Shown here piece by piece: positions 2,915 through 21,367 of a DNA stretch of 24,000 nucleotides. A program made the position numbers and the translations under genes. How positions within the stretch are numbered: position 1 is the stretch's first letter; the number at the start of each line of letters is the position of its first letter. This stretch comes from Lachnospiraceae bacterium (GTDB taxonomy: Bacteria > Bacillota > Clostridia > Lachnospirales > Lachnospiraceae), in contig JAEFAR010000024.1 in the NCBI GenBank assembly GCA_016287675.1, positions 8,137 through 32,136 of the forward strand, in the 5' to 3' direction. The notes beneath the pieces were generated by a model. It was not told the origin of the DNA and made no database searches. It was given only the letters and a program-made list of their open reading frames with translations.

Positions 2915-2960
2915 TTAAAAGAGCTCCGTTGCTTTACAGCTTCGAAGCTCTCTTTTTTTA
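2915..2960. terminator. Putative bidirectional terminator between the convergent SGNH hydrolase gene and the end of the long minus-strand operon
   Basis: AAAAGAGCT...AGCTCTCTTTTTTT, with an internal self-complementary AGCTTCGAAGCT. A-run and T-run flanks allow function on both strands. The loop is long, so the strength is uncertain. The T-run overlaps the last codons of the minus-strand ligase gene. Confidence 0.45.
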
Positions 2961-4622
2961 TTTGTTCGCATCCTCGTTTCTTATCTGGGCTCTCTTGATC
3001 TTTCCTCCGAGAGTCTTCGGAAGTTCATCCACAAACTCAACGATACGGGGATACTTGTAAGGAGCGGTGGCATGCTTAACATGATTCTGCAACTCCTTGA
3101 TGAGCTCCTCCGAAGGCGTGTAGCCCTTCGCCAGAACGACTGTCGCTTTAACTACCTGTCCGCGGATGGGATCAGGAGCTGCCGTGATGGCACATTCGAC
3201 AACCGCCGGATGCTCGATCAGAGCCGACTCGACCTCAAAGGGTCCGATACGATATCCGGAACACTTGATAACATCATCATGTCTTCCCACAAAGCGGTAG
3301 TAACCGTCATTATCCTTCCATGCAACATCCTTAAGGTTGTAGTCGCCTCCCTTAAATGCAGCATTGGTCTGCTCTTCGTTTTTGTAATAACCGATGAAGA
3401 GTCCCACCGGCGGATTCTTTTTTACTCCGCAGATAGTGATCTCTCCTTCTTCACCGCTCTCACACTCATTTCCGTTTTCATCCATGAGCTTGATATCGTA
3501 GATGGGTGAAGGCTTTCCCATGGCGCCCGGGATGGGTTCGAACCAGGGGAAATCGGCGAAGAGAACGGAGCCTTCGGTCTGTCCGAAGCCGGTGTGTATC
3601 TTTCCGCCGGTAAGTTCGAGCCAGCGGTTGTAAACTTCGGGGTTCAGAGGTTCTCCTGCCGTTGCGAAGTTCTGTATGCTTGAAAGATCGTAGCTCTTAA
3701 CATCCTCCTGCAGCATAAATCTGTACATCGTAGGCGGTGCGCAGAAGGTGGTGAGCTTGTAATCCTGCATGACCTGTAAAAGTCTTGCGGGTATGAATTT
3801 CTTCATATCATAACAGAAAACCGTAGCACCGCAGATCCACTGACCGTAGATCTTGCCCCAACCGAACTTTGCCCAGCCGGAATCGGAAACGCTCATGTGG
3901 AGCTTTCCTTCCCGGACCTGCTGCCAGTACTTGGCGGTAACTATGTGTCCGAGAGGATGGAAGTAGTTGTGTGTTACCATCTTGGGCATTCCGGTGGTTC
4001 CGGATGTAAAATAAAGCTGCATTACATCCGTACCCTTGGTAGCTTCCTCTCCCACAGGTCTTTCGAACACATCGGAACATTTCATGAATTCTTCGTCGAA
4101 GTCGATCCATCCGTCCTTCTTGACATTATCCACCAGTGCAAACTTCGTAACTCCGGGCATTTCCGGCTTTGCAAGCTCTACCTGGCTGATAACGTACTCA
4201 TCATCAACACACACCATCATCTTTACGCCTGCGGCGTTACAGCGATAGGCGATGTCCTTCTTTGTGAGCTGCAAAGTTGCAGGGATCAGGATCACACCGA
4301 GCTTTATAAGAGCTGTGGCACAAACCCAGTACTCCCACCTTCTTCTTAAGATCAGAAGAACAACATCTCCCTTTTTAAGTCCGCAGGATCTGAAGTAATT
4401 GGCGGCTCTGTTTGAAAGCTTGGACATATCCGAAAATGTGAAGCTCTTCTCATGTCCGTCATCATCGATCCAGAGCAGACATCTGAGATCGGGCTTTTCC
4501 TTTGCCCAGCCGTCCACTATGTCAAAGCCGAAGTTAAAGTTGTCGGGTGCATTTACTGTATAGTTCTTTTTAAAATCGTCGTAGGAATCAAATTCTGTTC
4601 TCGGTAAAAATCTCTCTAACAT
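2958..4622 (-). CDS. AMP-forming acyl-CoA synthetase, medium/short-chain (MACS/ACSM-like) family
   Basis: It carries the adenylation motifs YFTSGTTGMPKMV (A3), GFGQTEG (A5), SGYRIGPFEVESAL (A8) and LPKTLGGKIKR (A10 catalytic Lys). I chose the ATG at 4622 (MLERFLPR...) because GGAGA lies 8 nt upstream. The 4640 start in the ORF track would translate through that RBS. Confidence 0.9.
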   Translation of the reverse strand: MLERFLPRTEFDSYDDFKKNYTVNAPDNFNFGFDIVDGWAKEKPDLRCLLWIDDDGHEKSFTFSDMSKLSNRAANYFRSCGLKKGDVVLLILRRRWEYWVCATALIKLGVILIPATLQLTKKDIAYRCNAAGVKMMVCVDDEYVISQVELAKPEMPGVTKFALVDNVKKDGWIDFDEEFMKCSDVFERPVGEEATKGTDVMQLYFTSGTTGMPKMVTHNYFHPLGHIVTAKYWQQVREGKLHMSVSDSGWAKFGWGKIYGQWICGATVFCYDMKKFIPARLLQVMQDYKLTTFCAPPTMYRFMLQEDVKSYDLSSIQNFATAGEPLNPEVYNRWLELTGGKIHTGFGQTEGSVLFADFPWFEPIPGAMGKPSPIYDIKLMDENGNECESGEEGEITICGVKKNPPVGLFIGYYKNEEQTNAAFKGGDYNLKDVAWKDNDGYYRFVGRHDDVIKCSGYRIGPFEVESALIEHPAVVECAITAAPDPIRGQVVKATVVLAKGYTPSEELIKELQNHVKHATAPYKYPRIVEFVDELPKTLGGKIKRAQIRNEDANK

Positions 4623-4646
4623 TTCATAATCTCCAATCAATGTCGA

Positions 4647-5198
4647 CTACTCGGCGATCATTGTAAGGAAGGTTGCCGGCTTGTCGCCGTAGCACTTCTG
4701 ACCGTGTTTGTAGTTCGGGTTAAAATAAATACTGTCGCCTGTGTTTAAAATAATCTCCTGGTCGTCAAAGACGACGACGACACTGCCCGAAATGACAAGA
4801 TTGAATTCCTCTCCCTTGTGGCTTACAAGATCCGCGGGTTTGTCCGAAGGATCCAGAGTTACAAGGAAAGGTTGCATTATTTTGTTAGTGAAGCGATAGG
4901 CGAGATTTTCGAACTTGTATCCCGGATACCTGTCCGCGTTCTGGCCTTCGCCCTTACGAACCACCTGATAAGTACGAAGCTTTGCGCTGGTACCTGTCAT
5001 GATCTCGGAAAAATCCACGTGATAAAGCTTTGCCATTGAATAGATCACACTGATGGGAACGTTCGCTGCAGACTTCTCGTACTCATTGTAAGTCTCAGTG
5101 TCGATCCCCAGCTCGGATGCAACATATTCGGGTGTATAATCGCAAGCATCACGAAGGGCCCTGATCCTCTCAGCCAGTTCTTTTAATTCGTCTTCCAT
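4647..5198 (-). CDS. XRE-family HTH + cupin domain transcriptional regulator (PuuR/SutR-like architecture)
   Basis: The N-terminal part, LAERIRALRDACDYTPEYVASELGIDTETYNEYEKSAANVPISVIYSMAKLY, is an HTH_3-type helix-turn-helix. The C-terminal part, HKGEEFNLVISGSVVVVFDDQEIILNTGDSIYFNPNYKHG, is a cupin beta-barrel. It is clearly homologous to residues 1-195 of the 755-aa protein at 9870..12137. Confidence 0.85.
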   Translation of the reverse strand: MEDELKELAERIRALRDACDYTPEYVASELGIDTETYNEYEKSAANVPISVIYSMAKLYHVDFSEIMTGTSAKLRTYQVVRKGEGQNADRYPGYKFENLAYRFTNKIMQPFLVTLDPSDKPADLVSHKGEEFNLVISGSVVVVFDDQEIILNTGDSIYFNPNYKHGQKCYGDKPATFLTMIAE

Positions 5199-5233
5199 AG
5201 CTGCTCCTTTCGATTAAAGACCGTGGGGACGGA

Positions 5234-6301
5234 TCAATCGATCTTTACGATCCAGTTGTGCTCATCGGGAGCCTTACCCCACTGTATGGAAGTAAGTGTA
5301 TCATAAAGCATCTGAGTTGTCTTTCCTATTTCAAAATTATTGATCTTGTATTCCTTATCCTTGAAGATAAGTTCTCCGATGGGAGAAACAACAGCAGCCG
5401 TTCCGGTTCCCCATGCTTCTTCAAGTCTGCCGCTCTTTGCAGCTTCAAAAAGTTCATCAACGGAGATCCTTCTCTCTTCTACCTTGTATCCCTTAGCCTT
5501 CAGGAGTTCTATGCATGACTTTCTGGTAATTCCCGGAAGCACTGAACCTAAGAGTTCGGGAGTAACAACAACTCCGTCGATCTTGAACATAACGTTCATG
5601 GCGCCCACTTCTTCGATGTACTTTCTTTCAACACCGTCAAGCCAGAGAACCTGTGAGTAGCCCTTCTTTGCAGCCTTTTCGCCGGCTCTGTAGGATGCAG
5701 CGTAGTTACCGCCGCACTTTGCATATCCCGTGCCGCCTCTTACCGCACGAACATCCTCGTCCTCGATCATGATCTTAACGGGAGCGAGTCCTTCTGCATA
5801 GTAGCTGCCGGAAGGGGAACAGATCACGCAGAATGTGCACTGATGAACGGTGTGAACGCCGAGCTTGGGATCGGTTCCGATAAGGAAGGGACGGATGTAA
5901 AGAGAAGTTCCCTCCGAATGAGGCACCCAGTCCTTCTCCACTTCAACGATCTTCTTGATGCACTCAAGCATCTCCTCTTCAGGCATCTGAGGCATGCAGA
6001 GACGCTCTGCGGAATTGTTCATTCTGCGAACATTCTCGATGGGGCGGAAAAGCTGAACCTTTCCTTCTGCTGTTCTGTAAGCCTTAAGTCCTTCAAAGAT
6101 CTCGGCTCCGTAATGGAAAACTGCTGCTGCGGGTGAAAGTACGAAATCTGCGTAAGGCACGATCTCAGCATCCTCCCAGCCGTTCTCAGCCGTCCACTTG
6201 CGGATGAGCATATGATCCGAGAACACTGCTCCGAAGCCAAGCTTTGATTCATCTGTAGGTTTAGCTTTAGGCGAATTGGTAAGTTTTAAATTGATCTTCA
6301 T
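5234..6301 (-). CDS. ilvE: Branched-chain amino acid aminotransferase (PLP fold type IV)
   Basis: MKINLKLTNSPKAKPTDESKLGFGAVFSDHMLI...YGAEIFEGLKAYR...LYIRPFLIGTD...GTGYAKCGGNYAAS...GITR...GTGTAAVVSPIG is typical of the long-form BCAT. The ATG at 6301 is preceded by GGAGGG at 7 nt. The 6376 extension has no RBS. Confidence 0.9.
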   Translation of the reverse strand: MKINLKLTNSPKAKPTDESKLGFGAVFSDHMLIRKWTAENGWEDAEIVPYADFVLSPAAAVFHYGAEIFEGLKAYRTAEGKVQLFRPIENVRRMNNSAERLCMPQMPEEEMLECIKKIVEVEKDWVPHSEGTSLYIRPFLIGTDPKLGVHTVHQCTFCVICSPSGSYYAEGLAPVKIMIEDEDVRAVRGGTGYAKCGGNYAASYRAGEKAAKKGYSQVLWLDGVERKYIEEVGAMNVMFKIDGVVVTPELLGSVLPGITRKSCIELLKAKGYKVEERRISVDELFEAAKSGRLEEAWGTGTAAVVSPIGELIFKDKEYKINNFEIGKTTQMLYDTLTSIQWGKAPDEHNWIVKID

Positions 6302-6352
6302 ATTTATCCCTCCGTTTTCTTTATTTTCCCTTTTACACTTAAAATCGGAACA

Positions 6353-6401
6353 CAGTGTAAGCACTTTCCCGGCCAAATAACGGCGGAGACAGCTTACACT
6401 G
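6353..6401 (-). other. Intercistronic stem-loop formed by a perfect 10-bp inverted repeat with an inner GC stem
   Basis: The minus-strand RNA reads CAGUGUAAGC-ugucu-CCGCC-guuauuu-GGCCGG-gaaagu-GCUUACACUG. It sits between the gamma-subunit stop (6439) and the ilvE start (6301). A third partial copy, AGUGUAA, lies about 15 nt downstream. Confidence 0.6.
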
Positions 6402-6438
6402 CGTCAAGTTCGTATATGTCTGTACAAAGAAACATCTG

Positions 6439-6972
6439 TTACATATTGTAGCCTGTTTCAAGAGCTTTCTTGTTGAACTCAAGCATATCCTGATGTCTTG
6501 CGGAAATGATCTTTCCAAGTACCTTGTCAACGGAATCCATTTCAAATCCGGGGATCTCTTTGATGAGTTTTCCGGTAATGATCATGTTTGCAAGTGTGCT
6601 GATGTTCATGTCATTGGCTGTCTTTGTAGCCGGAATGTAGAAGACCTCCACATCCGTTCTCTCAACCTTTTTGTCGATGAGTGTTGAATCGATGAAGATC
6701 TTTCCTCCGGGTACTACGGAAGCCTCAAACTTCTCAAGAGAAGGAAGATTCATTGCCACCAGTACATCGGGCTTGTTTACAATGGGAGAACCGATGGGTT
6801 CGTCACTGATGATGACGTTACAGTTTGCCGTACCGCCTCTCATCTCGGGGCCGTAGGAAGGAAGCCAGGAAACCTGCTTGTCCTCGATGAGTCCCTTATA
6901 TGCCATGAATTTTCCCGCAAAGAGGATACCCTGACCGCCGAAGCCTGCGAATAACATTCTTGTTGTAGCCAT
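6439..6972 (-). CDS. 2-oxoacid:ferredoxin oxidoreductase, gamma subunit
   Basis: MATTRMLFAGFGGQGILFAGKFMAYKG...SYGPEMRGGTANC is the canonical gamma-subunit N-terminus of the POR/VOR/KOR family. Its ATG overlaps the beta-subunit stop (TGATG), which indicates translational coupling. Confidence 0.9.
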   Translation of the reverse strand: MATTRMLFAGFGGQGILFAGKFMAYKGLIEDKQVSWLPSYGPEMRGGTANCNVIISDEPIGSPIVNKPDVLVAMNLPSLEKFEASVVPGGKIFIDSTLIDKKVERTDVEVFYIPATKTANDMNISTLANMIITGKLIKEIPGFEMDSVDKVLGKIISARHQDMLEFNKKALETGYNM

Positions 6973-7724
6973 CAGTTGTTACCTCCTTCTGCGTAAATGT
7001 CCTTGTAAACGCCCAGAGGATAGTAGGGGATCATGTCTGTCTGGATGAACTCCAGCGCCTTCTCGGGGCTCTTTCCCCAGTTTGTGGGGCAGGAAGAAAT
7101 GACCTCAACAAGTGAGAAGCCCTTTCCTTCAACCTGATTCTTGAATGCATGAAGAATAGCCTTTTTAGCCTTTCTGACATTTGCAACGTTGTTTACCGCA
7201 ACTCTCTCGAGGTAAGCAGCGCCGTCAACCTTTGAAAGCATTTCGCACATCTTCATGGGATAACCTACTGTGTTAACATCACGTCCGTAGGGAGAAGTCT
7301 GCGTAACCATTCCGGGAAGAGTGGTGGGAGCCATCTGACCGCCTGTCATTCCGTAGATCGCATTGTTTACGAAGATAACGGTGATGTTCTCTCTTCTTGC
7401 TGCGGAATGAACGATCTCGGCCGTTCCGATGGAAGCGAGGTCTCCGTCACCCTGGTAGGTGAAGACGATCCTGGAGGGATCGGAACGCTTTACGCCTGTG
7501 GCAACTGCCGGAGCACGTCCGTGAGCTGCCTGAACGCAGTCAACATCGAAGTAATCATATGCCATAACGGAGCATCCTACGGAAGCCACGCAGATGGACT
7601 GTCCCTGTATGCCCAGCTCATCAATGGCTTCGGCAACAAGGCGATGAATGATACCGTGGGTGCAACCGGGGCAATAGTGCAGGGTCGCATCGGTTAATGC
7701 TTTGGGTTTGTGAAATTCAGCCAT
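6972..7724 (-). CDS. 2-oxoacid:ferredoxin oxidoreductase, beta (thiamine-diphosphate-binding) subunit
   Basis: The N-terminal Cys motif is YCPGCTHG. The TPP-binding motif is GDGDLASIG...NNAIYGMTGGQ. Its start overlaps the alpha-subunit stop (TAATG). Confidence 0.9.
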   Translation of the reverse strand: MAEFHKPKALTDATLHYCPGCTHGIIHRLVAEAIDELGIQGQSICVASVGCSVMAYDYFDVDCVQAAHGRAPAVATGVKRSDPSRIVFTYQGDGDLASIGTAEIVHSAARRENITVIFVNNAIYGMTGGQMAPTTLPGMVTQTSPYGRDVNTVGYPMKMCEMLSKVDGAAYLERVAVNNVANVRKAKKAILHAFKNQVEGKGFSLVEVISSCPTNWGKSPEKALEFIQTDMIPYYPLGVYKDIYAEGGNN

Positions 7725-8785
7725 TAGTTTTCACCTCCGTTTACTTTTTCGATGGAGGCAAGCACCTCTTCGGGGGAAGGGATCATTCCGCCCGTGCGGT
7801 TGCAAAGGTAAACAGGTTTCTTGCAACGCTCGGCAAGCTCTACATCCTGGATCATCTGACCCATGTTCATTTCAACAGTGATAAATGCCTTGACCTTGTC
7901 AGCTGCCTCTAAGATGGGCTTCTTGGGGAAAGGCCAAAGGGTGATGGGACGGATCATGCCCACCTTGATGCCCTTTGCACGAGCTGCAACAATGGCATTC
8001 TTTGAAACTCTGGCAGTGATACCGAAGGAAACGATGCAGATCTCAGCATCATCCATCATGTAGGATTCGTACATGACTTCGTTCTCTTCCACTGTCTTAT
8101 ACTTTTCAAAACGTTCAAAATTCTTCTGCTCAAGCTGTTCAGGCTTTAAGTAAAGGGAATTGACGATGTTTCTGGGTCTCTTGCATTCTGTTCCGGTGAG
8201 AGCCCAGGGCTTTGCAACCTCTTCGATCACGATGTCGTCAATGGCAACGGGCTCCATCATCTGGCCCATGGTTCCGTCTGCGAGGATCATGCATACCATG
8301 CGGTACTTGTCGGCAAGGTTGAATCCCTTTGCTGTGAGCATTGCCATCTCGGAAACGCTTGAAGGTGCAAGGACGATGTTATGGTAATCGCCATGGCTTC
8401 CGCCCTTTGTAGCCTGGAAGTAGTCGGACTGGGAAGGCTGGATGCCTCCGAGACCCGGTCCGCCTCTCTGGACATTGACCACAAGTGCGGGAAGATCGCA
8501 TCCTGCAAGATAGGAAATACCCTCACTCTTTAAGGAAACTCCCGGTGAAGATGAGGAAGTCATTACTCTCTTTCCTGTAGAAGATACGCCGATCACCATG
8601 TTGATCGCCGCGATTTCGCTTTCAGCCTGTAAAAATGTTCCTCCGATCTTGGGCATGCGCTTTGACATGTAAGCCGCAACCTCCGTCTGGGGTGTGATCG
8701 GATAACCGAAGTAGTAACGGCAGCCTGCCTTGATGGCAGCTTCTGCGATAGCTTCGTTACCCTTCATCAAAACTTTCTCTGACAT
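7724..8785 (-). CDS. vorB: 2-oxoacid:ferredoxin oxidoreductase, alpha subunit (VorB/KorA-like)
   Basis: MSEKVLMKGNEAIAEAAIKAGCRYYFGYPITPQTE is the typical alpha-subunit N-terminus. The ATG at 8785 is preceded by GGAGAA. The 8812 extension overlaps the delta gene. The symbol is tentative because VOR versus KOR substrate specificity cannot be read from the sequence. Confidence 0.85.
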   Translation of the reverse strand: MSEKVLMKGNEAIAEAAIKAGCRYYFGYPITPQTEVAAYMSKRMPKIGGTFLQAESEIAAINMVIGVSSTGKRVMTSSSSPGVSLKSEGISYLAGCDLPALVVNVQRGGPGLGGIQPSQSDYFQATKGGSHGDYHNIVLAPSSVSEMAMLTAKGFNLADKYRMVCMILADGTMGQMMEPVAIDDIVIEEVAKPWALTGTECKRPRNIVNSLYLKPEQLEQKNFERFEKYKTVEENEVMYESYMMDDAEICIVSFGITARVSKNAIVAARAKGIKVGMIRPITLWPFPKKPILEAADKVKAFITVEMNMGQMIQDVELAERCKKPVYLCNRTGGMIPSPEEVLASIEKVNGGEN

Positions 8786-8801
8786 AGGTGTTCTCCTTCC
8801 C

Positions 8802-9008
8802 TTAATTCTCAACAGTAATTACGCAGTCAGGGCACATTAGTGCACAGGATGCGCATCCGATGCAGGCATCGGTATCTATGCATTTTGCCGGATGATGTCC
8901 TTTTGCGTTCAGCACGTTCTCATCCAGTGCCACGATCTTTTTGGGGCAAGCTGTCACACAAAGCCCGCAGCCCTTGCAAACATCACTTTTAAATGAAATC
9001 TTCGCCAC
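8802..9008 (-). CDS. 2-oxoacid:ferredoxin oxidoreductase, delta subunit (2x[4Fe-4S] ferredoxin-like)
   Basis: It has two CxxCxxCxxxCP clusters, CKGCGLCVTACP and CIGCASCALMCP. It has a GTG start with GGAGGA 7-8 nt upstream. Confidence 0.85.
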   Translation of the reverse strand: MAKISFKSDVCKGCGLCVTACPKKIVALDENVLNAKGHHPAKCIDTDACIGCASCALMCPDCVITVEN

Positions 9009-9028
9009 TGTTGTATCCTCCTTTTAAA

Positions 9029-9060
9029 CCCCTGAGCCGCTAAAAAACGCGGATGCAGGG
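9029..9060 (-). other. Intercistronic hairpin between the P-loop NTPase gene and the delta-subunit gene
   Basis: The minus-strand RNA reads CCCUG-cau-CCGC-guuuuuua-GCGG-cu-CAGGG and is followed directly by the delta-subunit RBS. There is no U-tract, so it is not a canonical terminator. Confidence 0.5.
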
Positions 9061-9079
9061 TGATCATTTGTTGGTTGTG

Positions 9080-9745
9080 TTAAACTATCTTGTCTTGTAA
9101 ATGAATGACCATGAGGTTTTCGATCTTATCCTTCACCTCATCGTAGACCTTCCGGGTCACTGTCGTGAATCTGATGGGGATACCCGCCATTTCGGACACT
9201 TTTTGAGCAAATTCCACGCTTTCGAGAACATCTTCCGCCGTAGTTTCCTCACCGAGATTCGAATCATTAACGATCCCCGTGAATCTCATGTTTGCCGTGG
9301 TCTCTATCTCGTGCATGATTTCCATCGCCAGTTCCGGAGTTTTGGACAGGGGCCTGAATCTGTTTAAAACCAGAAGCAGTTCGTAGTCGTTCTCTTCCTT
9401 GATCGCATCTGCGTAGCGCCCAAGGGCCGTGGCTCCTCTGTCATCTCCGCCTATGTCAAAGATCGCATATCTGTCATGAATGTCAACCAATGAATAGATC
9501 TCTGCGGGAAGAGCGGGAAGATCCACATTTGATCCTGCATATAAAGACGAGATCAGCGTTATTCCGTTTTCTTCCAATTCCTTTTGGCTGTCCTTGGTCC
9601 TGAAGTAGGGATTTACAATGTCGAGATCGGCTATGGCCACATCCAGTCCCTTTTTCTTCAGCATCAGTGCATAATTAACAGCCACGTTGGTTTTTCCGCT
9701 GCCGTAGTGTCCGGCAAACAAAGTCACTCTTTTAAGCTTGTCCAT
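9080..9745 (-). CDS. P-loop NTPase of unknown function (MinD/ParA/CooC-like SIMIBI fold, classical Walker A)
   Basis: MDKLKRVTLFAGHYGSGKTNVAVNYALMLKKKGLDVAIADLD contains the Walker A motif GHYGSGKT, and AIFDIGGDD is Walker-B-like. The ATG at 9745 is preceded by AGGAGA. The 9802 extension lacks an RBS. Confidence 0.7.
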   Translation of the reverse strand: MDKLKRVTLFAGHYGSGKTNVAVNYALMLKKKGLDVAIADLDIVNPYFRTKDSQKELEENGITLISSLYAGSNVDLPALPAEIYSLVDIHDRYAIFDIGGDDRGATALGRYADAIKEENDYELLLVLNRFRPLSKTPELAMEIMHEIETTANMRFTGIVNDSNLGEETTAEDVLESVEFAQKVSEMAGIPIRFTTVTRKVYDEVKDKIENLMVIHLQDKIV

Positions 9746-9869
9746 TTTTCTCCTGTTAAAAGTATAATTATTCAGTTTATAACTTTTAAATACATTTTGC
9801 AAGCATTATTTCTTTAACGTTGTGAAGCAGTACCATTAAAAAATTTTACATTATTCAGAAGAAGCCCTT

Positions 9870-12137
9870 TTAAAGCGCTTTTCTGATAACTTTGCCGCTT
9901 ATGGTCTTGGGAAGCTCGGTTCTGAATTCCACGATCCTGGGATACTTGTAGGGAGCTGTCTTTTCCTTGACGTAATTCTGTATCTCTTTCTTAAGATCTT
10001 CGGTTCCTTCCTTGCCGGGAACAAGAACTATGCATGCTTTAACCACCTGTCCTCTGACGGGATCGGGAGCTGCACATACGCCGCATTCAAGCACATAAGG
10101 AAGTTCCATGATGACATTCTCGATCTCGAAGGGTCCGATCCTGTATCCCGAAGACTTGATGACGTCGTCGATCCTGGAAACATACCAGAAGTAACCGTCC
10201 TCATCCTTGTAGGCGATGTCTCCTGTGTGGTAATAGCCGTCATGCCATGCTTCTTTTGTCTTGTCAGGCTCTTTGTAGTACTCCAGAAGAAGTCCGCAGG
10301 GGATACCGTTCTTGGTGCTGATGCAGATCTCTCCGTTTTCCGCGGTACCCACGGGATTTCCTTCTGTGTCCAGCAGTTCCACATCATATGCGGGTGAAGG
10401 CTTACCCATTGAGCCCGGCTTCGGCTTCATGCCGACCAGGTTTCCGATCGTGAGTGTGGTCTCGGTCTGTCCGAAACCTTCCATAATATCAAGTCCCGTA
10501 GCCTGCTTGAACTGATAGAACACTTCGGGGTTCAAAGCTTCACCTGCGGTAGTCGCGTGCTCTATGCATGAAAGATCGTATTTTGTAAGGTCCTCCTTAA
10601 TGAACATTCTGTACATTGTGGGAGGTGCGCAGAAGGTGGTGATGGGATACTTGGCAAAAAGTTTCAGTATGTCATCCGCATGGAAGCGCTCGAAATCGTA
10701 AACGAATACTGCCGCTTCATTAAGCCACTGACCGAAGAGCTTGCCCCAGAGGGATTTGCCCCAGCCTGTGTCCGAAATCGTAAAGTGGAGGCCATTGGTC
10801 CTTACGCAGTGCCAGTACTTAGCTGTGATGAAATGTCCCAAAGCATACGTACAGGAATGGAGTACCATCTTGGGATAGCCGTTGGTGCCGCTGGAGAACA
10901 GCATGATCATGGGATCTTCGCCCTTTGCGCTGTCGGCGGTTCTTAAATACCTTCTGGAGAAGAAAACGTACTCGTCATCGAAATTTCTCCAGCCATCCTT
11001 GTGTCCGCCGACGATGATCTTGTTCTGAAGGAAAGGACATTCCTTTGCCGCATCGTCAACGGCATCTGTCGTACCGTCCGAAAACGTACATACGATGGAA
11101 TGGATGTCACCTGCCCTGAAGCGGTAGACAAAGTCATGACTCTTAAGCTGATTCGTGGCGGGAACAACAATCGCCCCGATCTTATTCAGTGCCAGGAAGG
11201 CTACCCAGAACTGATAGTGACGCTTGAGTACCAGCATTACCCTGTCGCCTTTTTTGATACCCAGGGATGTGAAGTAATTTGCCGCCTGATTTGAAAGTTC
11301 CTTGAATTCCTTAAATGTAAAACGTCTTTCGTTCTTGTCTTTGTCCAGATGGATCATTGCCAGCTTGTCGGGCTTTGTCTTTGCGATCTCATCCACAATG
11401 TCAAAAGCGAAATTGAATTTATCCGTGTTTTTAAAGTTGATGCTGTGGAAGCTTCCGTCTTCGTTGTCAACGCTGTCGATGAAGTTTTCGTAAACCAGTC
11501 CCTTGGTCTGCTTTGCACGTACGATAGCTTCCGTCGCAAAGCCGTTATCCTGTTCGTCGGATGCCATGATCATGGCGATGAACTTGCAGGCTTTTCCGCC
11601 AACAGCGATCATTCCGTGGGGCTTGCCGGAAGTGTAGTAGATGGAGTCTCCGGCATTCAGGATCTCCACATGTTCACCCACCTGCACTTTCAGCGATCCT
11701 TCAACGATGTAGTCAAATTCCTGGCCTGAATGTATCGTGGTGTGAATGGGAAGGTTCTGCAGCTTTTCATCGTAATCGTAAGTAACGAGGTAGGGCTCGG
11801 CAAGCTTCTTCTTGAAGTAGGGTGCAAGGTTCTGGATGAGCTCTCCGGCTTCGTTTGCTGTTGTAAGACCCATGCCTCCTCTTACCACATTGTAAGAAGA
11901 AAGTCTTGCACTCTGTCCCTCGATAAGTTCTGTCATCTCCAGTCCGAAAGCAAGTGCACATTTGTGCACAAACGTAAAGGGAAGTTCCGCTTCACCGTTC
12001 ATGTAAGCATTGAAATGCTCCATATCGACTTCTGCCTTTGCTGCAAGCTCTTCGTCGGAATAGCCTTTGATATCCTGCATATCACGTATTCTCACGACGA
12101 CTTCGTTCACTTGATCTTTCATTTCCGGCTTAACCAT
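9870..12137 (-). CDS. Fusion protein: N-terminal XRE-HTH + cupin regulator module (about aa 1-195) joined to an AMP-forming acyl-CoA synthetase (about aa 236-755)
   Basis: The N-terminal part, RIRDMQDIKGYSDEELAAKAEVDMEHFNAYMNGEAELPFTFVHKCALAFG...HSGQEFDYIVEGSLKVQVGEHVEILNAGDSIYYTSGKPHG, aligns along its length with the stand-alone regulator at 4647..5198. The C-terminal part has the ligase motifs FSSGTNGYPKMV, GFGQTET, SGYRIGPFEIENV and LPKTISGKVIRK. The ATG is preceded by AAAAGGAGAAAAACC. Confidence 0.9.
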   Translation of the reverse strand: MVKPEMKDQVNEVVVRIRDMQDIKGYSDEELAAKAEVDMEHFNAYMNGEAELPFTFVHKCALAFGLEMTELIEGQSARLSSYNVVRGGMGLTTANEAGELIQNLAPYFKKKLAEPYLVTYDYDEKLQNLPIHTTIHSGQEFDYIVEGSLKVQVGEHVEILNAGDSIYYTSGKPHGMIAVGGKACKFIAMIMASDEQDNGFATEAIVRAKQTKGLVYENFIDSVDNEDGSFHSINFKNTDKFNFAFDIVDEIAKTKPDKLAMIHLDKDKNERRFTFKEFKELSNQAANYFTSLGIKKGDRVMLVLKRHYQFWVAFLALNKIGAIVVPATNQLKSHDFVYRFRAGDIHSIVCTFSDGTTDAVDDAAKECPFLQNKIIVGGHKDGWRNFDDEYVFFSRRYLRTADSAKGEDPMIMLFSSGTNGYPKMVLHSCTYALGHFITAKYWHCVRTNGLHFTISDTGWGKSLWGKLFGQWLNEAAVFVYDFERFHADDILKLFAKYPITTFCAPPTMYRMFIKEDLTKYDLSCIEHATTAGEALNPEVFYQFKQATGLDIMEGFGQTETTLTIGNLVGMKPKPGSMGKPSPAYDVELLDTEGNPVGTAENGEICISTKNGIPCGLLLEYYKEPDKTKEAWHDGYYHTGDIAYKDEDGYFWYVSRIDDVIKSSGYRIGPFEIENVIMELPYVLECGVCAAPDPVRGQVVKACIVLVPGKEGTEDLKKEIQNYVKEKTAPYKYPRIVEFRTELPKTISGKVIRKAL

Positions 12138-12263
12138 GGTTTTTCTCCTTTTAATGTTGGATGTTGGTTCAAAAAATTCATTATGCTATACACGGATTGC
12201 TTCGCTGCTTCGTAGCTCCCGCAATCCTGCGAACATTCGCAAACCGCTGATTTTTGCTTTTGC

Positions 12264-12305
12264 AAAAAGAAAACGTCCCAAGATTAGTAAACTAATCTTG
12301 AGACG
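12264..12305 (-). terminator. T-box expression-platform terminator
   Basis: CGUCUCAAGAUUAG-uuua-CUAAUCUUGGGACG forms a 14-bp stem with one G-U pair and is followed by UUUUCUUUUU. Its 5' arm overlaps the 3' arm of the antiterminator. Confidence 0.85.
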
Positions 12306-12547
12306 AAATATTCATTCCGCGGTACCACTCAATTTCCTGCTTGGCAGGCTCTTTAAGGTCTTACAACCTCTTTGCACTAACGTAGCTCTCACGTAGGCCA
12401 CTACTCGCTTTCGCTTTCGCATCCTCAGCTCGGAAGGGATTGGATGATCTTAAGTTCTTACAGGCTCGCACCAAACGCCTGCTCTCTGAAAAGAAGTTTT
12501 AAAAGTCCGTCTTCGTCACAGCTTTTATTCAATACCTTATTTAATTG
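12264..12547 (-). promoter_or_regulatory. T-box riboswitch leader (tRNA-sensing transcription attenuator)
   Basis: Read on the minus strand, the leader contains the following elements. K-turn/GA motif: AGCUGUGACGAAG...CUUCCGAGCU. AG bay: CAGAGAG. Distal stem: CAGGC/GCCUG with an 11-nt loop GUUUGGUGCGA. Stem III: CCUGC-caa-GCAGG. T-box sequence: AAAUUGAGUGGUACCGCGG (12317..12335). Antiterminator: UUGAG/CUCAA flanking the 7-nt bulge UGGUACC. A mutually exclusive terminator follows. Confidence 0.85.
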
Positions 12548-12553
12548 TTCGTT

Positions 12554-12582
12554 ACTTTACCACTTTAAATTATCTTTGTCAA
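12554..12582 (-). promoter_or_regulatory. Sigma-A promoter driving the T-box leader (TTGACA-17-TAAAGT)
   Basis: The reverse complement of 12577..12582 is TTGACA and of 12554..12559 is TAAAGT, with a 17-nt spacer. The -35 overlaps the TGA stop codon of the upstream glycoside-hydrolase-like gene. Confidence 0.7.
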
Positions 12583-15902: not shown

Positions 15903-17657
15903 TTAATTTACAAATCCCACGGCTGCACTGGTCACCGACTTACCGTTGTACGTAATGGTGACGCGGACGTACTTGAGATGGGTCTGGGCATATACGGAAT
16001 CATAGCTTGCTCCGTCCGGAACAGTGTCCGAAATGTTCAAAGTTCTGGAGTTTCCCACACCGTCGATCTCTGTCCATGCTGTTGCATTCTTTGCGGCTGC
16101 GTACTCCCACTTGAATTCGAAATCATCAAGATCGGTAGACAGCTTTGATGTCAGGTTCGTGCTGGGGTTAGCAGTCAGTGTGAATCCGAGCTTCGGGCTT
16201 CCGGAGATGGAAGCATAGGTCAGAGCCTTTGAGTAATCAAGACTCGGCGAGCAAAGCCTGTAAGGTGAAGGAAGTTCGGTCTTGGTTCCGGTCTTTCTCA
16301 CAACTATGATGGATCCGCTCACTGCTCTGCTGTAAGCGATCTTGGTGTAGCTGTTTGCCTTTAATGTGGTCCACTGCATGTTTGTAACGGGAAGCTGCGA
16401 GTAAGCAGTTGCGGAGACCGTTGCCCCCGCTGCAGGGAAATTGGAAAGTCCGTATCTTGCAGCATCCGTGGGAGTGAGCACAGCAACCTGAAAATCGCAG
16501 TCATTGTTGTTGGTAATCTGGATGCCGCCGTTACCTGACTTTGAAGAAACGTATTCTATCTCAATGTTTGCCTGCTCTGCAGCAGAAAGGGTTCCGGATG
16601 TGGGCACGGTGATCTCTGTGATACGGCTGGCTGCAGCCCTCTGTGCGCCTGCGGTTCTGACGTAAAGCACCGCAGAGGATGTTATGGGATCCGACATGGC
16701 AAGCCCAAGAGCCTGCTGTGCAAGGAATTTTGTTGTCCTCACGGAAGTGGTGATGGGCTCGATGGCGGTGAGTCTGTCCGTGGAAGGCACCGTAGCTTCA
16801 TCGGTGGTGGCATTTGAGGCAAAAACGGGGATCAGAGTCCAGTTTTCTCCGTCCAGTGAGAATTCCTGTCCGTTCTTTAAATTGATGGTTCCGTCAATAA
16901 GATTAATGTTAACGATAGGTCCCGGAAGAATCTTTGCCAGAGTGTATCTCGCAACTCCCGAAGAACGGTTTCCGATGCCGTTTGCATCGTCTGCCTGGCT
17001 GACGGATCTTATGCGGAACTCAAGTGCTCCGCCGCGGATCTCCATCTCATGAGGATCCAGGTCCTTAAATTCATGCCAGTTTCCGTTGGTGCCTTTACGC
17101 CATTCTATGTTCTCAAGTTCCAGATAAGTCTGGTCCCTGTTGTTGACCTTTTTGGTAAAAATGAAGTATCCCGTGTCTTCACCGAAATGTACGGCGTAAT
17201 CAGGCTCCGCATACTTCGCTTTCCAGCTCTCTGCATCCGTGATGTCCGTTGCGAGAAGTGTTCCCGTGAACTTCACGCCGAGAGTGTCCTGCCACTTGAG
17301 CACTATGCTCGAGATCTTTGTGTGGTTGTCACCGCAGATGTAAACCTTTACATCCGCATTGCTCCTCGCCCAGGAGAAGTCAAACATGGCCACATCATCG
17401 CGTACATCGCAGCAGTACCATTTTGAAATGTCGGCGGTATAGGTGTCGGTGAAGTAGATCTTTTCATCCCTATCTCCTGCGGAAAGAGAGCTTTCATCTA
17501 TGATCACGGACATTCTGTCGTAATCGATGGTTATGAGGTTACTCGGCACTGCCACTCCTGCGGAAGCAAAGACACCGTCGTCAGCATTCAGTCCCACAGC
17601 CATCGCGATCAGTGTAACAACAGCGATAAGCCGCAAGATCAACCTTTTCGTTTTCAT
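15903..17657 (-). CDS. Secreted protein of unknown function (584 aa, Sec signal peptide, beta-rich)
   Basis: MKTKRLILRLIAVVTLIAMAVGLNADDGVFASA has a positive n-region, a hydrophobic core and an ASA cleavage site. The ATG at 17657 is preceded by GGAGGG. I recognise no motif, LPXTG signal or lipobox. It is only 40 nt downstream of the flgN/fliT-like gene, with no terminator between them. Confidence 0.7.
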   Translation of the reverse strand: MKTKRLILRLIAVVTLIAMAVGLNADDGVFASAGVAVPSNLITIDYDRMSVIIDESSLSAGDRDEKIYFTDTYTADISKWYCCDVRDDVAMFDFSWARSNADVKVYICGDNHTKISSIVLKWQDTLGVKFTGTLLATDITDAESWKAKYAEPDYAVHFGEDTGYFIFTKKVNNRDQTYLELENIEWRKGTNGNWHEFKDLDPHEMEIRGGALEFRIRSVSQADDANGIGNRSSGVARYTLAKILPGPIVNINLIDGTINLKNGQEFSLDGENWTLIPVFASNATTDEATVPSTDRLTAIEPITTSVRTTKFLAQQALGLAMSDPITSSAVLYVRTAGAQRAAASRITEITVPTSGTLSAAEQANIEIEYVSSKSGNGGIQITNNNDCDFQVAVLTPTDAARYGLSNFPAAGATVSATAYSQLPVTNMQWTTLKANSYTKIAYSRAVSGSIIVVRKTGTKTELPSPYRLCSPSLDYSKALTYASISGSPKLGFTLTANPSTNLTSKLSTDLDDFEFKWEYAAAKNATAWTEIDGVGNSRTLNISDTVPDGASYDSVYAQTHLKYVRVTITYNGKSVTSAAVGFVN

Positions 17658-17697
17658 GGCATTCCCTCCTTGCATATACTTAAAAGCCACGGAGCAG

Positions 17698-18192
17698 TCA
17701 GTGTTTTTCGTCAAGAAAAACCGGCGTCACGGCATTTAGCCCGTTCATGCTCTTGTAGTACTTGTCCGCAGTCTGGCGGCTGACCTTGAAACTCTTCTTG
17801 CCTTTACGGAGTTCCTCGATCCTCTTGTCCAGTGTAGACTTGTTCTTCTTTTCAAGAGCCGAAACAGTGACGCTCAGATCAGTGATCTCCTGAATCAAAG
17901 CTTGGAGCCTGCGGATCGCATCCGCATGCTCCTTGCCCTTTTCCCTGATATCCTGAGAGATCTTATCAAAGAGCTTCTGAAATCCTTCATCCATCTCCGT
18001 CAGCTCATTGATAAGCTTTGTTTTATTGTCAATGGCGTCATTAAAAGTCTTTTCGTCAATGCTCTCTTTTGCCAGTGCATCTTCCTGTGCCTTAGTGGCT
18101 TCGTATATGCCCGTAAGCACCTTCTTCTTTCGCACCAGCACGTCCTGCATTACTCTTAAGTATCCGCCAAAATCAAGTCTGTCTTCCATCAT
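17698..18192 (-). CDS. Flagellar export chaperone-like protein (FlgN/FliT-like), all-helical
   Basis: The product is about 164 aa and is a coiled-coil-rich acidic/basic helical protein sitting directly after fliS, as fliT/yvyG does in Bacillus. The motif MMEDRLDFGGYLRVMQDVLVRKKKVLTGIYEATKAQEDAL resembles FlgN-family N-termini. The second ATG at 18189 has better RBS spacing, so the start is uncertain by 3 nt. Confidence 0.55.
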   Translation of the reverse strand: MMEDRLDFGGYLRVMQDVLVRKKKVLTGIYEATKAQEDALAKESIDEKTFNDAIDNKTKLINELTEMDEGFQKLFDKISQDIREKGKEHADAIRRLQALIQEITDLSVTVSALEKKNKSTLDKRIEELRKGKKSFKVSRQTADKYYKSMNGLNAVTPVFLDEKH

Positions 18193-18207
18193 TTCTCCAA
18201 TGCGGGA

Positions 18208-18588
18208 TTAACGAACATACATATGGTTCTGCTTCATGATCTCTTTCCAGAGGTCTCTCATCTCACGGATCTGTCCGAGAGCCTTCTCAAGGCTTTCTCT
18301 TTCCTTTTTGATGTTGGCCTGGATCAGAAGTGTGTTGATGTATTCGTAAATGAGATCGAAATCCTTCGCTGTCTCATACTTGAAATCAAGTGTTGCGCGG
18401 AATTCGGTAATGATGTTCTGAACCTTGATGATGTTGTTATTCACTTTTTCGTAGTCATTGGTCTCGAATCCGAGAAGCGCGATGTTACAGAACTTGATAG
18501 CGCCTTCATAGAGCATCAATGTGAGTTCGGCGGGAGAAGCCGTGTTAACTTTTGTTCCCTGATAGAGTGTTGCTGCATTCATAGCCAT
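18208..18588 (-). CDS. fliS: Flagellar export chaperone FliS
   Basis: YQGTKVNTASPAELTLMLYEGAIKFCNIA...IIKVQNIITEFRATLDF...AKDFDLIYEYINTLLIQAN is the FliS four-helix-bundle signature. GGAGGA lies 9 nt upstream of the ATG. Confidence 0.9.
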   Translation of the reverse strand: MAMNAATLYQGTKVNTASPAELTLMLYEGAIKFCNIALLGFETNDYEKVNNNIIKVQNIITEFRATLDFKYETAKDFDLIYEYINTLLIQANIKKERESLEKALGQIREMRDLWKEIMKQNHMYVR

Positions 18589-18613
18589 ATTCTTTTTCCT
18601 CCGATTTCATTAA

Positions 18614-20518
18614 TTAATTCTGGGGTGTTGTTCCGAGCATTGATGCCAATGATGACGATTTGCTCTGAAGTTCGGCAAGGGCTTTTTCCATCGCCGTAAA
18701 CTGTTTATAGTATCTGTTTCTCAGATCGTCGATCCTGTCGTTTATCGTATCAAGATCGCTCTGGTATCTGTCAAGATCACTCTTGTACTGCTTATCGTTG
18801 TAGAAGGTAAGAGCACTTGAAACGCTTGTCTTTGCACATTTATCACTTAATGTAGTGTAAAGATTTGTAAAGATCCCGCTCATTGCTTCCATAACCTTGT
18901 CCGGATCTTCATCAAGAGCTGCCTTCAGTCTGTCATTGTCAGCCGCGTAGATGGCATCTTCCTTGTTGCCCAGGATGTGGAGCTTGCCGCGTTCGGTGTA
19001 ATTACCTGTAACGATACCGTAGGTGGAAAGTGAGTACTTGTTACCTTCGCTGTCGGTGTAAGTGCTTTGAAGAGCCGCTCTCATAGAGGTCATCAGACCT
19101 CCCAGTGTGGTGTCTCTCCTTAAGAGAGAACTCTTGATCTTGTTTTCCCACTGCTCCACCTCATCATCGGTCATGGACTCCTTCTGCTCAGCCGTCAAAG
19201 GATCGTAACCCCTTGCAGAATCTGCGTAGTAGAGTTTTCCCATTTCCTCGATGAGCTTATTGTATTCATTGACCGCATCTTTAATGAGATCATAGGTTGA
19301 TGACGTATCCTTTGTAACGGTTACGGTCATTTCATCGTAATCTCCGGTGGCCTCGTTCTTTGTGGTGTTAAGAAGATTCAATGTGAGGCCGTTTACCGTA
19401 AGAGTGTTTGTGGAAGAACTCATTGTAGCTCCGTCCACGATGGCTTTTGCGTCTCTCGCCGCAGTTACGACAAGATCGCCTTCAGTGCCTTCGGCAACGT
19501 TTTCTCCCGTAATCCCGCTGCCGAGTCCGAGTCCCGAAAGACTTGCCGCCTGATCCCTGTTGTCCGTGGCATTGGCGTAATCCTGAACCTTGGTCGTGAA
19601 CTCGTTTTCCCAAGCAGTGATCTGGTCATTGTCATCCGGGATGGTGAGTCCCGCGGTGGCCAGACTCTTTATTGTCTGCATCGCATTGTAGACTGCGATC
19701 TGATCGTCCGAATTTACCGATGTGTCATCGGGATCGAAGCCATTCTGAAGTGCGGCTTCGATGTCTTCCTTACTTGCCGCAAGGATCGTGTTTACCGCAT
19801 TGTCGTAAGCTGTCTGATCGGTCTCCGACATTGCGCTGACAGTGTCGGGATCGATGGCGTTCATTATGGATCCCTTTGCGCTTGCATATGCACTCGTAAC
19901 GGAAGTAGAGGTTATGGTAAACTTGTTCTCTTCGCCGCTGTCTCCGGAACTGAAGAAGAATCTCTTCTGCGCCGTATCGTAGCTGGCAGTGATCCCCGCT
20001 TCCTTTGCTGCGCTTATGATGTCCTTTATCTTGGTGTTATTGTCAACGGTAATGGTCTTTACCGTCTCGTCTGCGGATCCCGCTTTTCCCTTGAAGGTGA
20101 TGGTCTGCCCTACGAGATTTGATCCGCTCTCCGCATCCAGCTGTGCGAGTCTTGTCTCCGATGTGTAGGTCCCGCTGAGCTTTGCACCGGTAACGTACTG
20201 TGAACTGGCAACCTGCTTGATCTTAATGGTATGCTGGCCCGCAGATGCCGAAGAAGATGCAGACGCCTTGATCTTCGTTTCATCACTGCTCTCAGCTGCT
20301 TTTGTCTGATAGGAGCTCTTCAAACGAAGCTTGGATGCAAAATCCGTGTAAAAAGAATAGATCTTCTTGTTAAGGTCCGACCATGCTGTAGTCGTCCACT
20401 TATTAAGAGTAACCTTATTGTCGATTTTGGTCTTTTTTGCTGTCTGACCGCCGACCATTGCATCAACAATGGCATCCGTGTCGAGACCGGAGATCATTCC
20501 GGATAATCCGATACCCAT
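18614..20518 (-). CDS. fliD: Flagellar filament capping protein FliD (hook-associated protein 2)
   Basis: The N-terminus is MGIGLSGMISGLDTDAIVDAMV. The C-terminus is RIDDLRNRYYKQFTAMEKALAELQSKSSSL. The ATG at 20518 has GGAGG 8 nt upstream. The 20533 start would lie inside the RBS. Confidence 0.9.
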   Translation of the reverse strand: MGIGLSGMISGLDTDAIVDAMVGGQTAKKTKIDNKVTLNKWTTTAWSDLNKKIYSFYTDFASKLRLKSSYQTKAAESSDETKIKASASSSASAGQHTIKIKQVASSQYVTGAKLSGTYTSETRLAQLDAESGSNLVGQTITFKGKAGSADETVKTITVDNNTKIKDIISAAKEAGITASYDTAQKRFFFSSGDSGEENKFTITSTSVTSAYASAKGSIMNAIDPDTVSAMSETDQTAYDNAVNTILAASKEDIEAALQNGFDPDDTSVNSDDQIAVYNAMQTIKSLATAGLTIPDDNDQITAWENEFTTKVQDYANATDNRDQAASLSGLGLGSGITGENVAEGTEGDLVVTAARDAKAIVDGATMSSSTNTLTVNGLTLNLLNTTKNEATGDYDEMTVTVTKDTSSTYDLIKDAVNEYNKLIEEMGKLYYADSARGYDPLTAEQKESMTDDEVEQWENKIKSSLLRRDTTLGGLMTSMRAALQSTYTDSEGNKYSLSTYGIVTGNYTERGKLHILGNKEDAIYAADNDRLKAALDEDPDKVMEAMSGIFTNLYTTLSDKCAKTSVSSALTFYNDKQYKSDLDRYQSDLDTINDRIDDLRNRYYKQFTAMEKALAELQSKSSSLASMLGTTPQN

Positions 20519-20577
20519 ATGCTTTACCTCCAAATTCCTTTTTCTTTTTTGCGCTTCCCTGCGTAAGAGTTAATTGG

Positions 20578-20997: not shown

Positions 20998-21051
20998 TTT
21001 GCTCCCTCCGTTATTATTTCCTCTTTCTTATACTTCGGTCTTCTGTGTATT

Positions 21052-21079
21052 TTATCGGAATAACCCCATCAAATATTAA
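21052..21079 (-). promoter_or_regulatory. Sigma-28 (SigD/FliA-type) promoter for flaG-fliD-fliS
   Basis: The minus strand reads TAAT-N15-TCCGATAA, against the consensus TAAA-N15-GCCGATAA. It lies about 55 nt upstream of the flaG ATG and just downstream of the csrA terminator. Confidence 0.6.
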
Positions 21080-21101
21080 CGAAGAAAAATAAAATTTTTG
21101 T

Positions 21102-21133
21102 AAAAAAATGCAGGGTCATTAAAAACCCTGCAT
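21102..21133 (-). terminator. Rho-independent terminator after csrA
   Basis: The minus strand reads ATGCAGGGT-ttttaatg-ACCCTGCAT followed by TTTTTTT. Confidence 0.85.
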
Positions 21134-21145
21134 ATGTTTTCTTTC

Positions 21146-21364: not shown

Positions 21365-21367
21365 TGT

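Follow-up and report, generated by a model that had tools for sequence, protein, structure and literature searches.

A T-box-headed operon in a Lachnospiraceae genome, predicted to supply branched-chain amino acids from short-chain acids under isoleucine starvation

The 24,000-nucleotide stretch analysed here (contig JAEFAR010000024.1 of a Lachnospiraceae bacterium, assembly GCA_016287675.1, positions 8,137 to 32,136 of the forward strand; hereafter the window) carries nine consecutive open reading frames (ORFs) on its minus strand between positions 2958 and 12137, named g1 to g9 in the direction of reading. They encode a fusion acyl-coenzyme A (CoA) ligase, a P-loop NTPase, the four subunits of a 2-oxoacid:ferredoxin oxidoreductase (OFOR), a transaminase, a helix-turn-helix (HTH)-cupin protein and a second ligase, and they stand behind a T-box leader with an isoleucine specifier. 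The source is a rumen or gut member of the Lachnospiraceae, and its nearest relatives are rumen metagenome-assembled genomes. An earlier, first-pass annotation of the same DNA had proposed nine genes in this order on one strand, and the ORF positions, together with the Pfam and NCBIfam assignments, uphold that layout. The genes and the hairpin that follows them are:

9870 to 12137, minus strand: g1, HTH-cupin-acyl-CoA ligase fusion of 755 aa (Pfam Cupin_2, AMP-binding and AMP-binding_C)
9080 to 9745, minus strand: g2, P-loop NTPase of 221 aa (Pfam CbiA/ParA-type P-loop)
8802 to 9008, minus strand: g3, oxidoreductase delta subunit of 68 aa, 2x[4Fe-4S] ferredoxin-like
7724 to 8785, minus strand: g4, oxidoreductase alpha subunit of 353 aa counted from ATG 8785 (POR_N and PFOR_II)
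6972 to 7724, minus strand: g5, oxidoreductase beta subunit, thiamine pyrophosphate-binding; its start overlaps the g4 stop (TAATG)
6439 to 6972, minus strand: g6, oxidoreductase gamma subunit (POR); its start overlaps the g5 stop (TGATG)
5234 to 6301, minus strand: g7, branched-chain amino acid aminotransferase of fold type IV (Aminotran_4)
4647 to 5198, minus strand: g8, free-standing XRE-HTH and cupin protein of 183 aa (Pfam HTH_3 and Cupin_2)
2958 to 4622, minus strand: g9, second short/medium-chain acyl-CoA ligase of 554 aa counted from ATG 4622 (AMP-binding)
2917 to 2954, minus strand: terminator hairpin of 12 bp (free energy -24.9 kcal/mol, z = -3.45, equalled by 0 of 200 shuffled sequences)

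Judging from the lengths of homologues and from ribosome-binding sites, four genes probably have their true starts inside the ORFs, at ATG 9745 for g2, ATG 8785 for g4, ATG 6301 for g7 and ATG 4622 for g9.

The first gene had been annotated as a ligase, which is correct for its AMP-binding part but incomplete, as g1 is a fusion of an HTH-cupin module to the ligase. The first ~190 residues of g1 align with g8 over its whole length (34% identity, E=9e-39), so that g8 and g9 together represent a split version of the g1 architecture, and the operon has the HTH-cupin and ligase combination twice, once fused and once split. For both ligases, the closest solved structure is 3ETC, the MacsMa enzyme of Methanosarcina acetivorans (634 bits for g1, 694 bits for g9), and the best NCBIfam model is MbcS. 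MacsMa favours 2-methylbutyrate (PMC10455477), while MbcS favours isobutyrate and 2-methylbutyrate and serves membrane lipid primers (PMC13584741). The window ligases share with these enzymes the subfamily, the AKYW tryptophan, the conserved GWGK region and the AMP-binding and AMP-binding_C domains. Unlike MacsMa (3ETC) and MbcS of Staphylococcus aureus, g1 possesses the N-terminal HTH-cupin domain; the physiological settings differ as well, MbcS supplying lipid primers and MacsMa having no assigned physiological role.

The oxidoreductase is represented by all four subunits, each with a Pfam match, and its solved relatives are 1YD7, 8YS5 and 6N2N. The alpha subunit g4 scores 535 bits against the NCBIfam VorB model NF005507 (cut-off 399), compared with 255 bits against the KorA model (cut-off 579). 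The adjoining transaminase g7 had been called a branched-chain enzyme of fold type IV from the start, and it passes the cut-offs of both TIGR01123 ilvE_II (403 bits, cut-off 250) and NF009897 (483 bits, cut-off 307). The P-loop protein g2 sits directly upstream of the delta gene as a conserved neighbour and is one of a large family whose annotations go no further than 'hypothetical' or 'MinD-like'. Its AlphaFold2 model (mean predicted local distance difference test score 89) shows a SIMIBI-class P-loop fold, for which Foldseek returned only generic matches, with the SRP54/FtsY G domains on top, the ATPase-type HypB at rank 43 and TM-scores of ~0.5-0.6. Scores against the NCBIfam Mrp and ApbC models are ~20 bits (cut-offs 348-450). 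The P-loop fold is like that of the SIMIBI NTPases that insert Fe-S clusters or nickel (Mrp/NBP35/ApbC, CooC and HypB), but g2 lacks their CXXC/CXC ligands; it is entirely free of cysteine, and no cysteine occurs among the invariant columns of its family. As a guess, the most likely role of g2 is to assist the oxidoreductase as an accessory or assembly factor.

Upstream of g1, the region contains the following regulatory features:

12554 to 12582, minus strand: sigma-70-type promoter, TTGACA, 17 nt, TAAAGT with a TG extension; 10 of 12 matches
12296 to 12528, minus strand: T-box leader, matching Rfam RF00230 over its full length (model positions 1-219) with 100.6 bits (gathering score 93) and E=2e-21
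12438 to 12440, minus strand: specifier codon AUC (Ile); the next base is C, after which comes the CUUC strand of the helix under the specifier loop
12318 to 12329, minus strand: T-box sequence AGUGGUACCGCG, containing the UGGU bulge
12264 to 12305, minus strand: T-box terminator, a 14-bp hairpin (12305-12274) followed by the U-run UUUUCUUUUU

The T-box had been recognised in the first-pass annotation, as had an upstream promoter, and both were recovered here, the leader above the Rfam gathering score and the promoter with its extended -10 box at 12582-12554. The leader has the hallmarks of a T-box, namely the UGGN bulge and an antiterminator that excludes the terminator structure and vice versa. 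The UGGU bulge is complementary to a tRNA 3' end of ACCA, so that the cognate tRNA should have discriminator base A73, which is compatible with tRNA-Ile, tRNA-Val and tRNA-Leu. For comparison, 80 related loci were fetched from species-representative genomes with the fusion protein g1 as query, and 125 leaders with the AGUGGUACCGCG motif from these loci were aligned. All leaders ahead of the first ligase, including that of the window, have the specifier ATC (73/73), with A, C or G as the next base, whereas the leaders ahead of the second tandem ligase read GTA (46) or GTC (4), i.e., valine in 50/50, followed by a purine. Immediately 3' of the codon lies a 4-bp helix, which has all its pairs in 107 of 120 leaders and exists in the compensatory variants GAAG/CUUC, GAAA/UUUC, GGAG/CUCC, GAGG/CCUC and GGGG/CCCC. 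Since this covarying helix adjoins the codon, the register of the specifier is fixed, and the specifier of the window is thus read as AUC, for isoleucine. A serine reading, obtained by shifting the frame by one nucleotide (UCN), was rejected: the same shift produces UAG and UAA stop codons in the valine-class leaders, and it is further disfavoured by the UGGU bulge, which implies A73. Bacterial tRNA-Ser has discriminator G73. An Rfam scan of six relatives identified 10 T-boxes with 93-117 bits. In the promoter regions of the window and of three relatives (L002, L086 and L087; L-numbers are our labels for related loci), the -35 box does not vary and the -10 motif TGnTA is conserved; only these two boxes stand out in the four-way alignment, and no operator for an HTH protein is seen in it.

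Relatives of g1 are encoded in at least 596 genome stretches, nearly all of them from metagenome-assembled genomes of rumen or gut origin that belong to the Lachnospiraceae, the Oscillospiraceae, the Acutalibacteraceae and further Clostridia. The usual layout in the relatives is a T-box for isoleucine, fusion ligase 1, a T-box for valine, fusion ligase 2, the P-loop gene, the delta, alpha, beta and gamma genes and the transaminase gene. Restricting the count to the 45 informative loci, which have at least 8 kb of sequence downstream, the core of ligase, P-loop protein, delta, alpha, beta and gamma is syntenic on the same strand in 41, the transaminase is also present in 33 of those 41, and two tandem fusion ligases are found in 33 of the 45. 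The lineage of the window has a single isoleucine T-box and a split HTH-cupin and ligase pair at the operon end; its nine-gene order is repeated in L002, L086 and L087, with g1 identities of 97%, 85% and 77%, and the leaders of L086 and L087 carry ATC. The recurrence of this nine-gene order, together with the synteny in 41 of 45 loci, places the arrangement far beyond chance. In relatives with two T-boxes (L006, L008, L063 and ~30 others), the oxidoreductase and transaminase genes lie downstream of the valine T-box only, and isoleucine starvation alone should then induce only ligase 1 in that layout.

A third T-box class in the relatives has the leucine specifiers CUC or CUG, for example at 5352-9523 (minus strand) of L008 and at 4048-8213 (plus strand) of L006. 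Isoleucine, valine and leucine T-boxes are thereby partitioned among different ligases. The leucine unit encodes a divergent LeuA-like protein (HMGL-like and LeuA_dimer domains), which scores below all isopropylmalate synthase cut-offs, and an 819-aa protein in which a xylose-isomerase-like TIM barrel (AP_endonuc_2) is fused to a FadD-type acyl-CoA ligase. This fusion is unrelated to the ligases of the isoleucine and valine units, which the leucine unit often adjoins. In L029, a tetrahydrofolate riboswitch (71 bits) lies at 3223-3320 on the plus strand, ~2 kb upstream of the leucine T-box unit.

The two T-box-linked ligase classes allowed us to place the ligases of the window. g1 is orthologous to the isoleucine-T-box class, and of three positions that discriminate between the classes one is clean: residue 460 of g1 is glycine in 100% of the isoleucine-class ligases and in MacsMa, and alanine in 100% of the valine-class ligases. 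g1 has the class-specific Gly460 (TGWGK), and g9 has alanine at the aligned position (SGWAK). The exchange fits a larger pocket for a C5 acid and a smaller one for a C4 acid, and we regard it as only a lead towards a possible chain-length determinant. On these grounds, g1 is predicted to be a 2-methylbutyrate--CoA ligase (AMP-forming). The idea that g9 is the orthologue of the valine-T-box ligase was ruled out, as its identity to either class is only 47-48% and its module is a separate one, often found alone. In the other genomes examined, the HTH-cupin protein g8 always lies beside a g9-type ligase.

Taking the gene content, the leader and the conserved layout together, we consider it likely that the operon is an isoleucine-starvation-induced salvage system that makes branched-chain amino acids from exogenous branched short-chain acids. 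As the proposed mechanism, uncharged tRNA-Ile(GAU) would pair with the AUC specifier and the UGGU bulge and stabilise the antiterminator, allowing RNA polymerase to enter the operon. g1, AMP-forming and effectively irreversible, would convert 2-methylbutyrate to 2-methylbutyryl-CoA, and g9 would activate a second acid, probably isobutyrate. From the acyl-CoA, CO2 and reduced ferredoxin, the VorB-family delta-alpha-beta-gamma oxidoreductase would then form 3-methyl-2-oxopentanoate or 2-oxoisovalerate, which the IlvE-type transaminase g7 would turn into isoleucine or valine. Three considerations point to the anabolic direction. The leader opens when tRNA-Ile (in relatives also tRNA-Val) is uncharged, which makes sense only for a pathway whose product is that amino acid; with AMP-forming ligases, the acid is committed to becoming the CoA ester; and no ATP-conserving exit enzyme is present, as neither phosphotransacylase/kinase (ptb/buk) nor ADP-forming synthetase nor CoA-transferase genes were found in or next to the cluster. 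The first-pass annotation had likewise favoured reductive carboxylation of branched acids, and the isoleucine and valine specifiers, the relatives of the ligases and the VorB and ilvE_II cut-offs lend support to this proposal. Its suggestion that the two ligase paralogues handle different acids is in keeping with the isoleucine/valine split of the T-boxes and with the 2-methylbutyrate and isobutyrate preferences of the nearest characterised relatives.

Several points weigh against this reading. The base after the window's specifier is C instead of the usual purine. Both ligases miss the MbcS equivalog cut-off of 850 bits (451 for g1, 445 for g9), by which they count as relatives of MbcS and not as equivalogs. 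g9 is not a valine-class orthologue, which leaves its acid uncertain, isobutyrate being the suspected candidate. None of the beta, gamma and delta subunits attains a substrate-specific NCBIfam cut-off, and their best names are of the 2-oxoglutarate type. We infer the substrates and the direction of the oxidoreductase only from homology and regulatory logic. Finally, the 124- and 137-nt gaps within the cluster and the existence of g8-g9 as a stand-alone module elsewhere leave room for internal promoters.

This last point leads to a different account of the transcription of the cluster, in which it is not one T-box unit: the T-box would govern g1 to g7 or fewer genes, and g8-g9 would be an autonomous, self-regulated acid-activation unit. 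The HTH-cupin and ligase pair does occur in unrelated contexts with ~150 nt upstream and no T-box motif (L081/L082 and L084/L085), and in L083 it follows the P-loop and oxidoreductase genes in a locus that has no T-box motif anywhere; the identity of g9 to g1 and to both T-box-linked classes, of only ~47%, also speaks for this account. Within the window, the first-pass annotation had described the junctions as small or overlapping throughout. The TAATG and TGATG couplings were confirmed, at g4/g5 and g5/g6, but overlaps are limited to these two, and three junctions span 71-137 nt (g1-g2 124 nt, g2-g3 71 nt and g6-g7 137 nt, compared with 16 nt for g3-g4, 35 nt for g7-g8 and 24 nt for g8-g9). 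A sequence scan of the operon region revealed no convincing internal promoter or terminator; it returned one weak promoter-like site at 9790-9761 (9/12 matches), and terminator-like sites are not more frequent than in shuffled sequence (8 vs 10.6). Contrary to what an autonomous g8-g9 unit would call for, the g7-g8 gap has neither a promoter-like nor a terminator-like site, L002, L086 and L087 preserve the nine-gene order although g1 identity falls to 77% among them, and the sole convincing terminator is located 3' of g9. It coincides with the terminator proposed in the first-pass annotation at 2915..2960. We therefore find a divided cluster unlikely and infer that the nine genes are co-transcribed.

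As to function, the main rival to amino acid salvage is that branched acyl-CoA from the cluster primes the synthesis of iso- and anteiso-fatty acids, with the ligases scavenging exogenous branched acids, as MbcS does in S. aureus, while the transaminase and the OFOR run oxidatively, from amino acid through 2-oxoacid to acyl-CoA, as a ferredoxin-linked substitute for the Bkd complex. All enzymes of the cluster converge on branched acyl-CoA, 2-oxoacid:ferredoxin oxidoreductases are reversible, MbcS as the best model for both ligases serves membrane lipid primers (PMC13584741), and the induction of ligase 1 under isoleucine scarcity would also suit the supply of anteiso primers. Lipid primer supply thus fits the gene content, but not the co-induction of the transaminase and the oxidoreductase under starvation, because inducing enzymes that consume isoleucine and valine while tRNA-Ile or tRNA-Val is uncharged would be counter-productive. 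Moreover, no fab or other lipid genes occur in the window or in the conserved neighbourhood, and each ligase of the relatives is under its own amino-acid T-box, which follows the logic of amino acid supply. As the leading use of the cluster, we judge primer supply improbable; the two uses may coexist, since the acyl-CoA could feed both.

A catabolic, Stickland-type oxidative branch, leading from the amino acid through the 2-oxoacid and acyl-CoA to the branched acid, appears very improbable to us. A transaminase and an oxidoreductase of the 2-oxoisovalerate:ferredoxin oxidoreductase (VOR) type form the core of branched-chain amino acid fermentation in clostridia. However, AMP-forming ligases are unfit as the ATP-conserving exit step, the genes for the alternatives named above (ptb/buk, ADP-forming synthetase, CoA-transferase) are not present in or next to the cluster, and induction by uncharged tRNA-Ile or tRNA-Val is opposite to the catabolic need. 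That the OFOR is instead a 2-oxoglutarate synthase making glutamate from succinate, an option the first-pass annotation had left standing, is hardly credible, since the 2-oxoglutarate-type best names of the delta and beta subunits lie far under the cut-offs (47.8 vs 125 and 136 vs 364 bits), the alpha subunit passes VorB and falls well short of KorA, the partners are a branched-chain aminotransferase and MacsMa/MbcS-like ligases, and the T-boxes are for isoleucine, valine and leucine, never glutamate.

The HTH-cupin modules may add a second input to the operon, and our guess would be substrate or product sensing or feedback on the ligase; a transcription factor, a feedback sensor and a dimerisation device are candidate roles. 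g8 resembles PuuR-like XRE-cupin regulators in combining HTH_3 with Cupin_2, but the match to PuuR is weak (26.8 bits vs an equivalog cut-off of 211), and DNA binding is putative. No solved relative of g8 was found. The union of a DNA-binding domain and an adenylate-forming enzyme in g1 recalls BirA, a DNA-binding enzyme, by analogy and not by homology. At the end of the HTH region of g1, residues 53-60 (PFTFVHKC) are invariant in eleven aligned fusion ligases that are 64-84% identical to g1, while the presumed recognition helix before them is variable. The combination hints that this 'HTH' may serve something other than sequence-specific DNA binding.

Since the 1960s it has been recognised that many rumen anaerobes need the isoacids isobutyrate, 2-methylbutyrate and isovalerate or are stimulated by them, and dairy cattle receive these acids in their feed. 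The chemistry and physiology of the isoacid route are already known, the physiology for 60 years, as are T-box-controlled biosynthetic operons. An anabolic 2-oxoisovalerate synthase has been established in methanogens (PMC3087415), and for rumen anaerobes it is established that 2-methylbutyrate is turned into isoleucine (Robinson & Allison 1969, cited in PMC2812497; see also PMC10658910). The chemistry of the methanogen VOR (Tersteegen et al. 1997) and of the rumen route of Robinson and Allison is the same as that proposed here, the alpha subunit of the window falls into NCBIfam VorB, and the rumen or gut setting is shared. In contrast to the methanogen VOR, the system of the window is bacterial (Clostridia), and the classical rumen work is physiological, with the genes unassigned in these bacteria. 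The literature found on the methanogen VOR and the rumen isoacid route does not connect them with T-boxes, dedicated ligase paralogues, HTH-cupin modules or a P-loop protein. The literature searched handles the isoacid route physiologically, and no gene assignment in Firmicutes was found in it. A full-text search likewise found no published description of this gene set or its amino-acid-specific T-boxes, nor of the combination of a salvage operon under such T-boxes with ligases partitioned by specifier, the HTH-cupin fusion and the P-loop partner, a mention in the T-box survey of Vitreschak et al. 2008 being possible.

The ilv-leu operon of Bacillus subtilis is an amino-acid biosynthesis operon under a leucine T-box. 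The predicted salvage operon is like ilv-leu in having a leader that senses uncharged tRNA (specifier, UGGN bulge and terminator/antiterminator) and in that the tRNA of one branched-chain amino acid controls a pathway serving several. It differs in its cargo, which is a salvage route entering at the level of acyl-CoA and not the acetolactate/isopropylmalate pathway, and in that separate isoleucine, valine and leucine T-boxes of the relatives each gate their own acid-activating ligase. A broader proposal is possible, to which we give tentative and less than even credence: that the operon belongs to a widespread salvage regulon for branched-chain amino acids in gut and rumen Clostridia, in which isoleucine, valine and leucine T-boxes would each gate their own ligase, the ligases would be 'sensor enzymes' that have an HTH-cupin module as a fused domain or as a partner protein (for DNA binding or first-step feedback), and the cysteine-free SIMIBI NTPase would be an obligatory partner of the oxidoreductase. 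If this were true, it would provide the genetic basis of the classical isoacid requirement, and many isoleucine, valine and leucine auxotrophies predicted in gut microbiome models would be corrected.

For the operon itself, a readable isoleucine, valine or leucine specifier provides testable candidates for which bacteria use which acid. 'Auxotrophy' for branched-chain amino acids that is scored from ilv and leu genes alone may mislabel carriers of the cluster. The cysteine-free P-loop NTPase and the HTH-cupin module fused to an adenylating enzyme are concrete targets for work on mechanism. The finding would overturn nothing, but it would make an old nutritional question testable at the gene level.

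Two spacers of the window are widened by strain-specific insertions missing from close relatives. The inserted elements of the region are:

12184 to 12263, minus strand: inserted structured element of ~80-85 nt, 3' of the T-box terminator and 5' of the ribosome-binding site of g1
~6310 to 6435, minus strand: strain-specific insertion of ~110 nt in the g6-g7 spacer, after the stop codon of the gamma gene and before the ribosome-binding site of the transaminase gene

When the region was scanned permissively against Rfam, nothing was returned beyond the T-box and a near-threshold match to the orphan family Clostridiales-1 RNA (RF01699) at 12184-12327 on the minus strand (47.4 bits vs a gathering score of 48, E=4e-8). 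The 5' hairpin of this match aligns onto the T-box terminator, and its 3' two-thirds correspond to the inserted element. The insertion at 12184-12263 is also present, in a larger form, in L001, and it is not found at this site in L002 or L086; it lies outside the conserved operon and looks like a small insertable structured element. L002 and L086 lack the g6-g7 insertion, and their spacer measures ~20-25 nt. Within the insertion, a 10-bp inverted repeat (CAGTGTAAGC...GCTTACACTG) precedes a weak U-run, and the insertion could attenuate the expression of g7 to g9.

The flanks of the operon are unrelated to it. Downstream lie a convergent GDSL hydrolase gene and argG, and the 2917-2954 hairpin has four U on the operon strand and seven T on the opposite strand, which indicates a bidirectional terminator common to the operon and the GDSL gene. 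Upstream lie a large glycosidase-like gene, of 1067 aa, and flagellar genes. Between the two, at 15903-17714, is the gene for a 603-aa protein with no Pfam match. The flagellar block spans 17698-23405 on the minus strand (FlgN-like, fliS, fliD, flaG, fliW and flagellin), and the flagellar neighbourhood is also present in L086 and L087.

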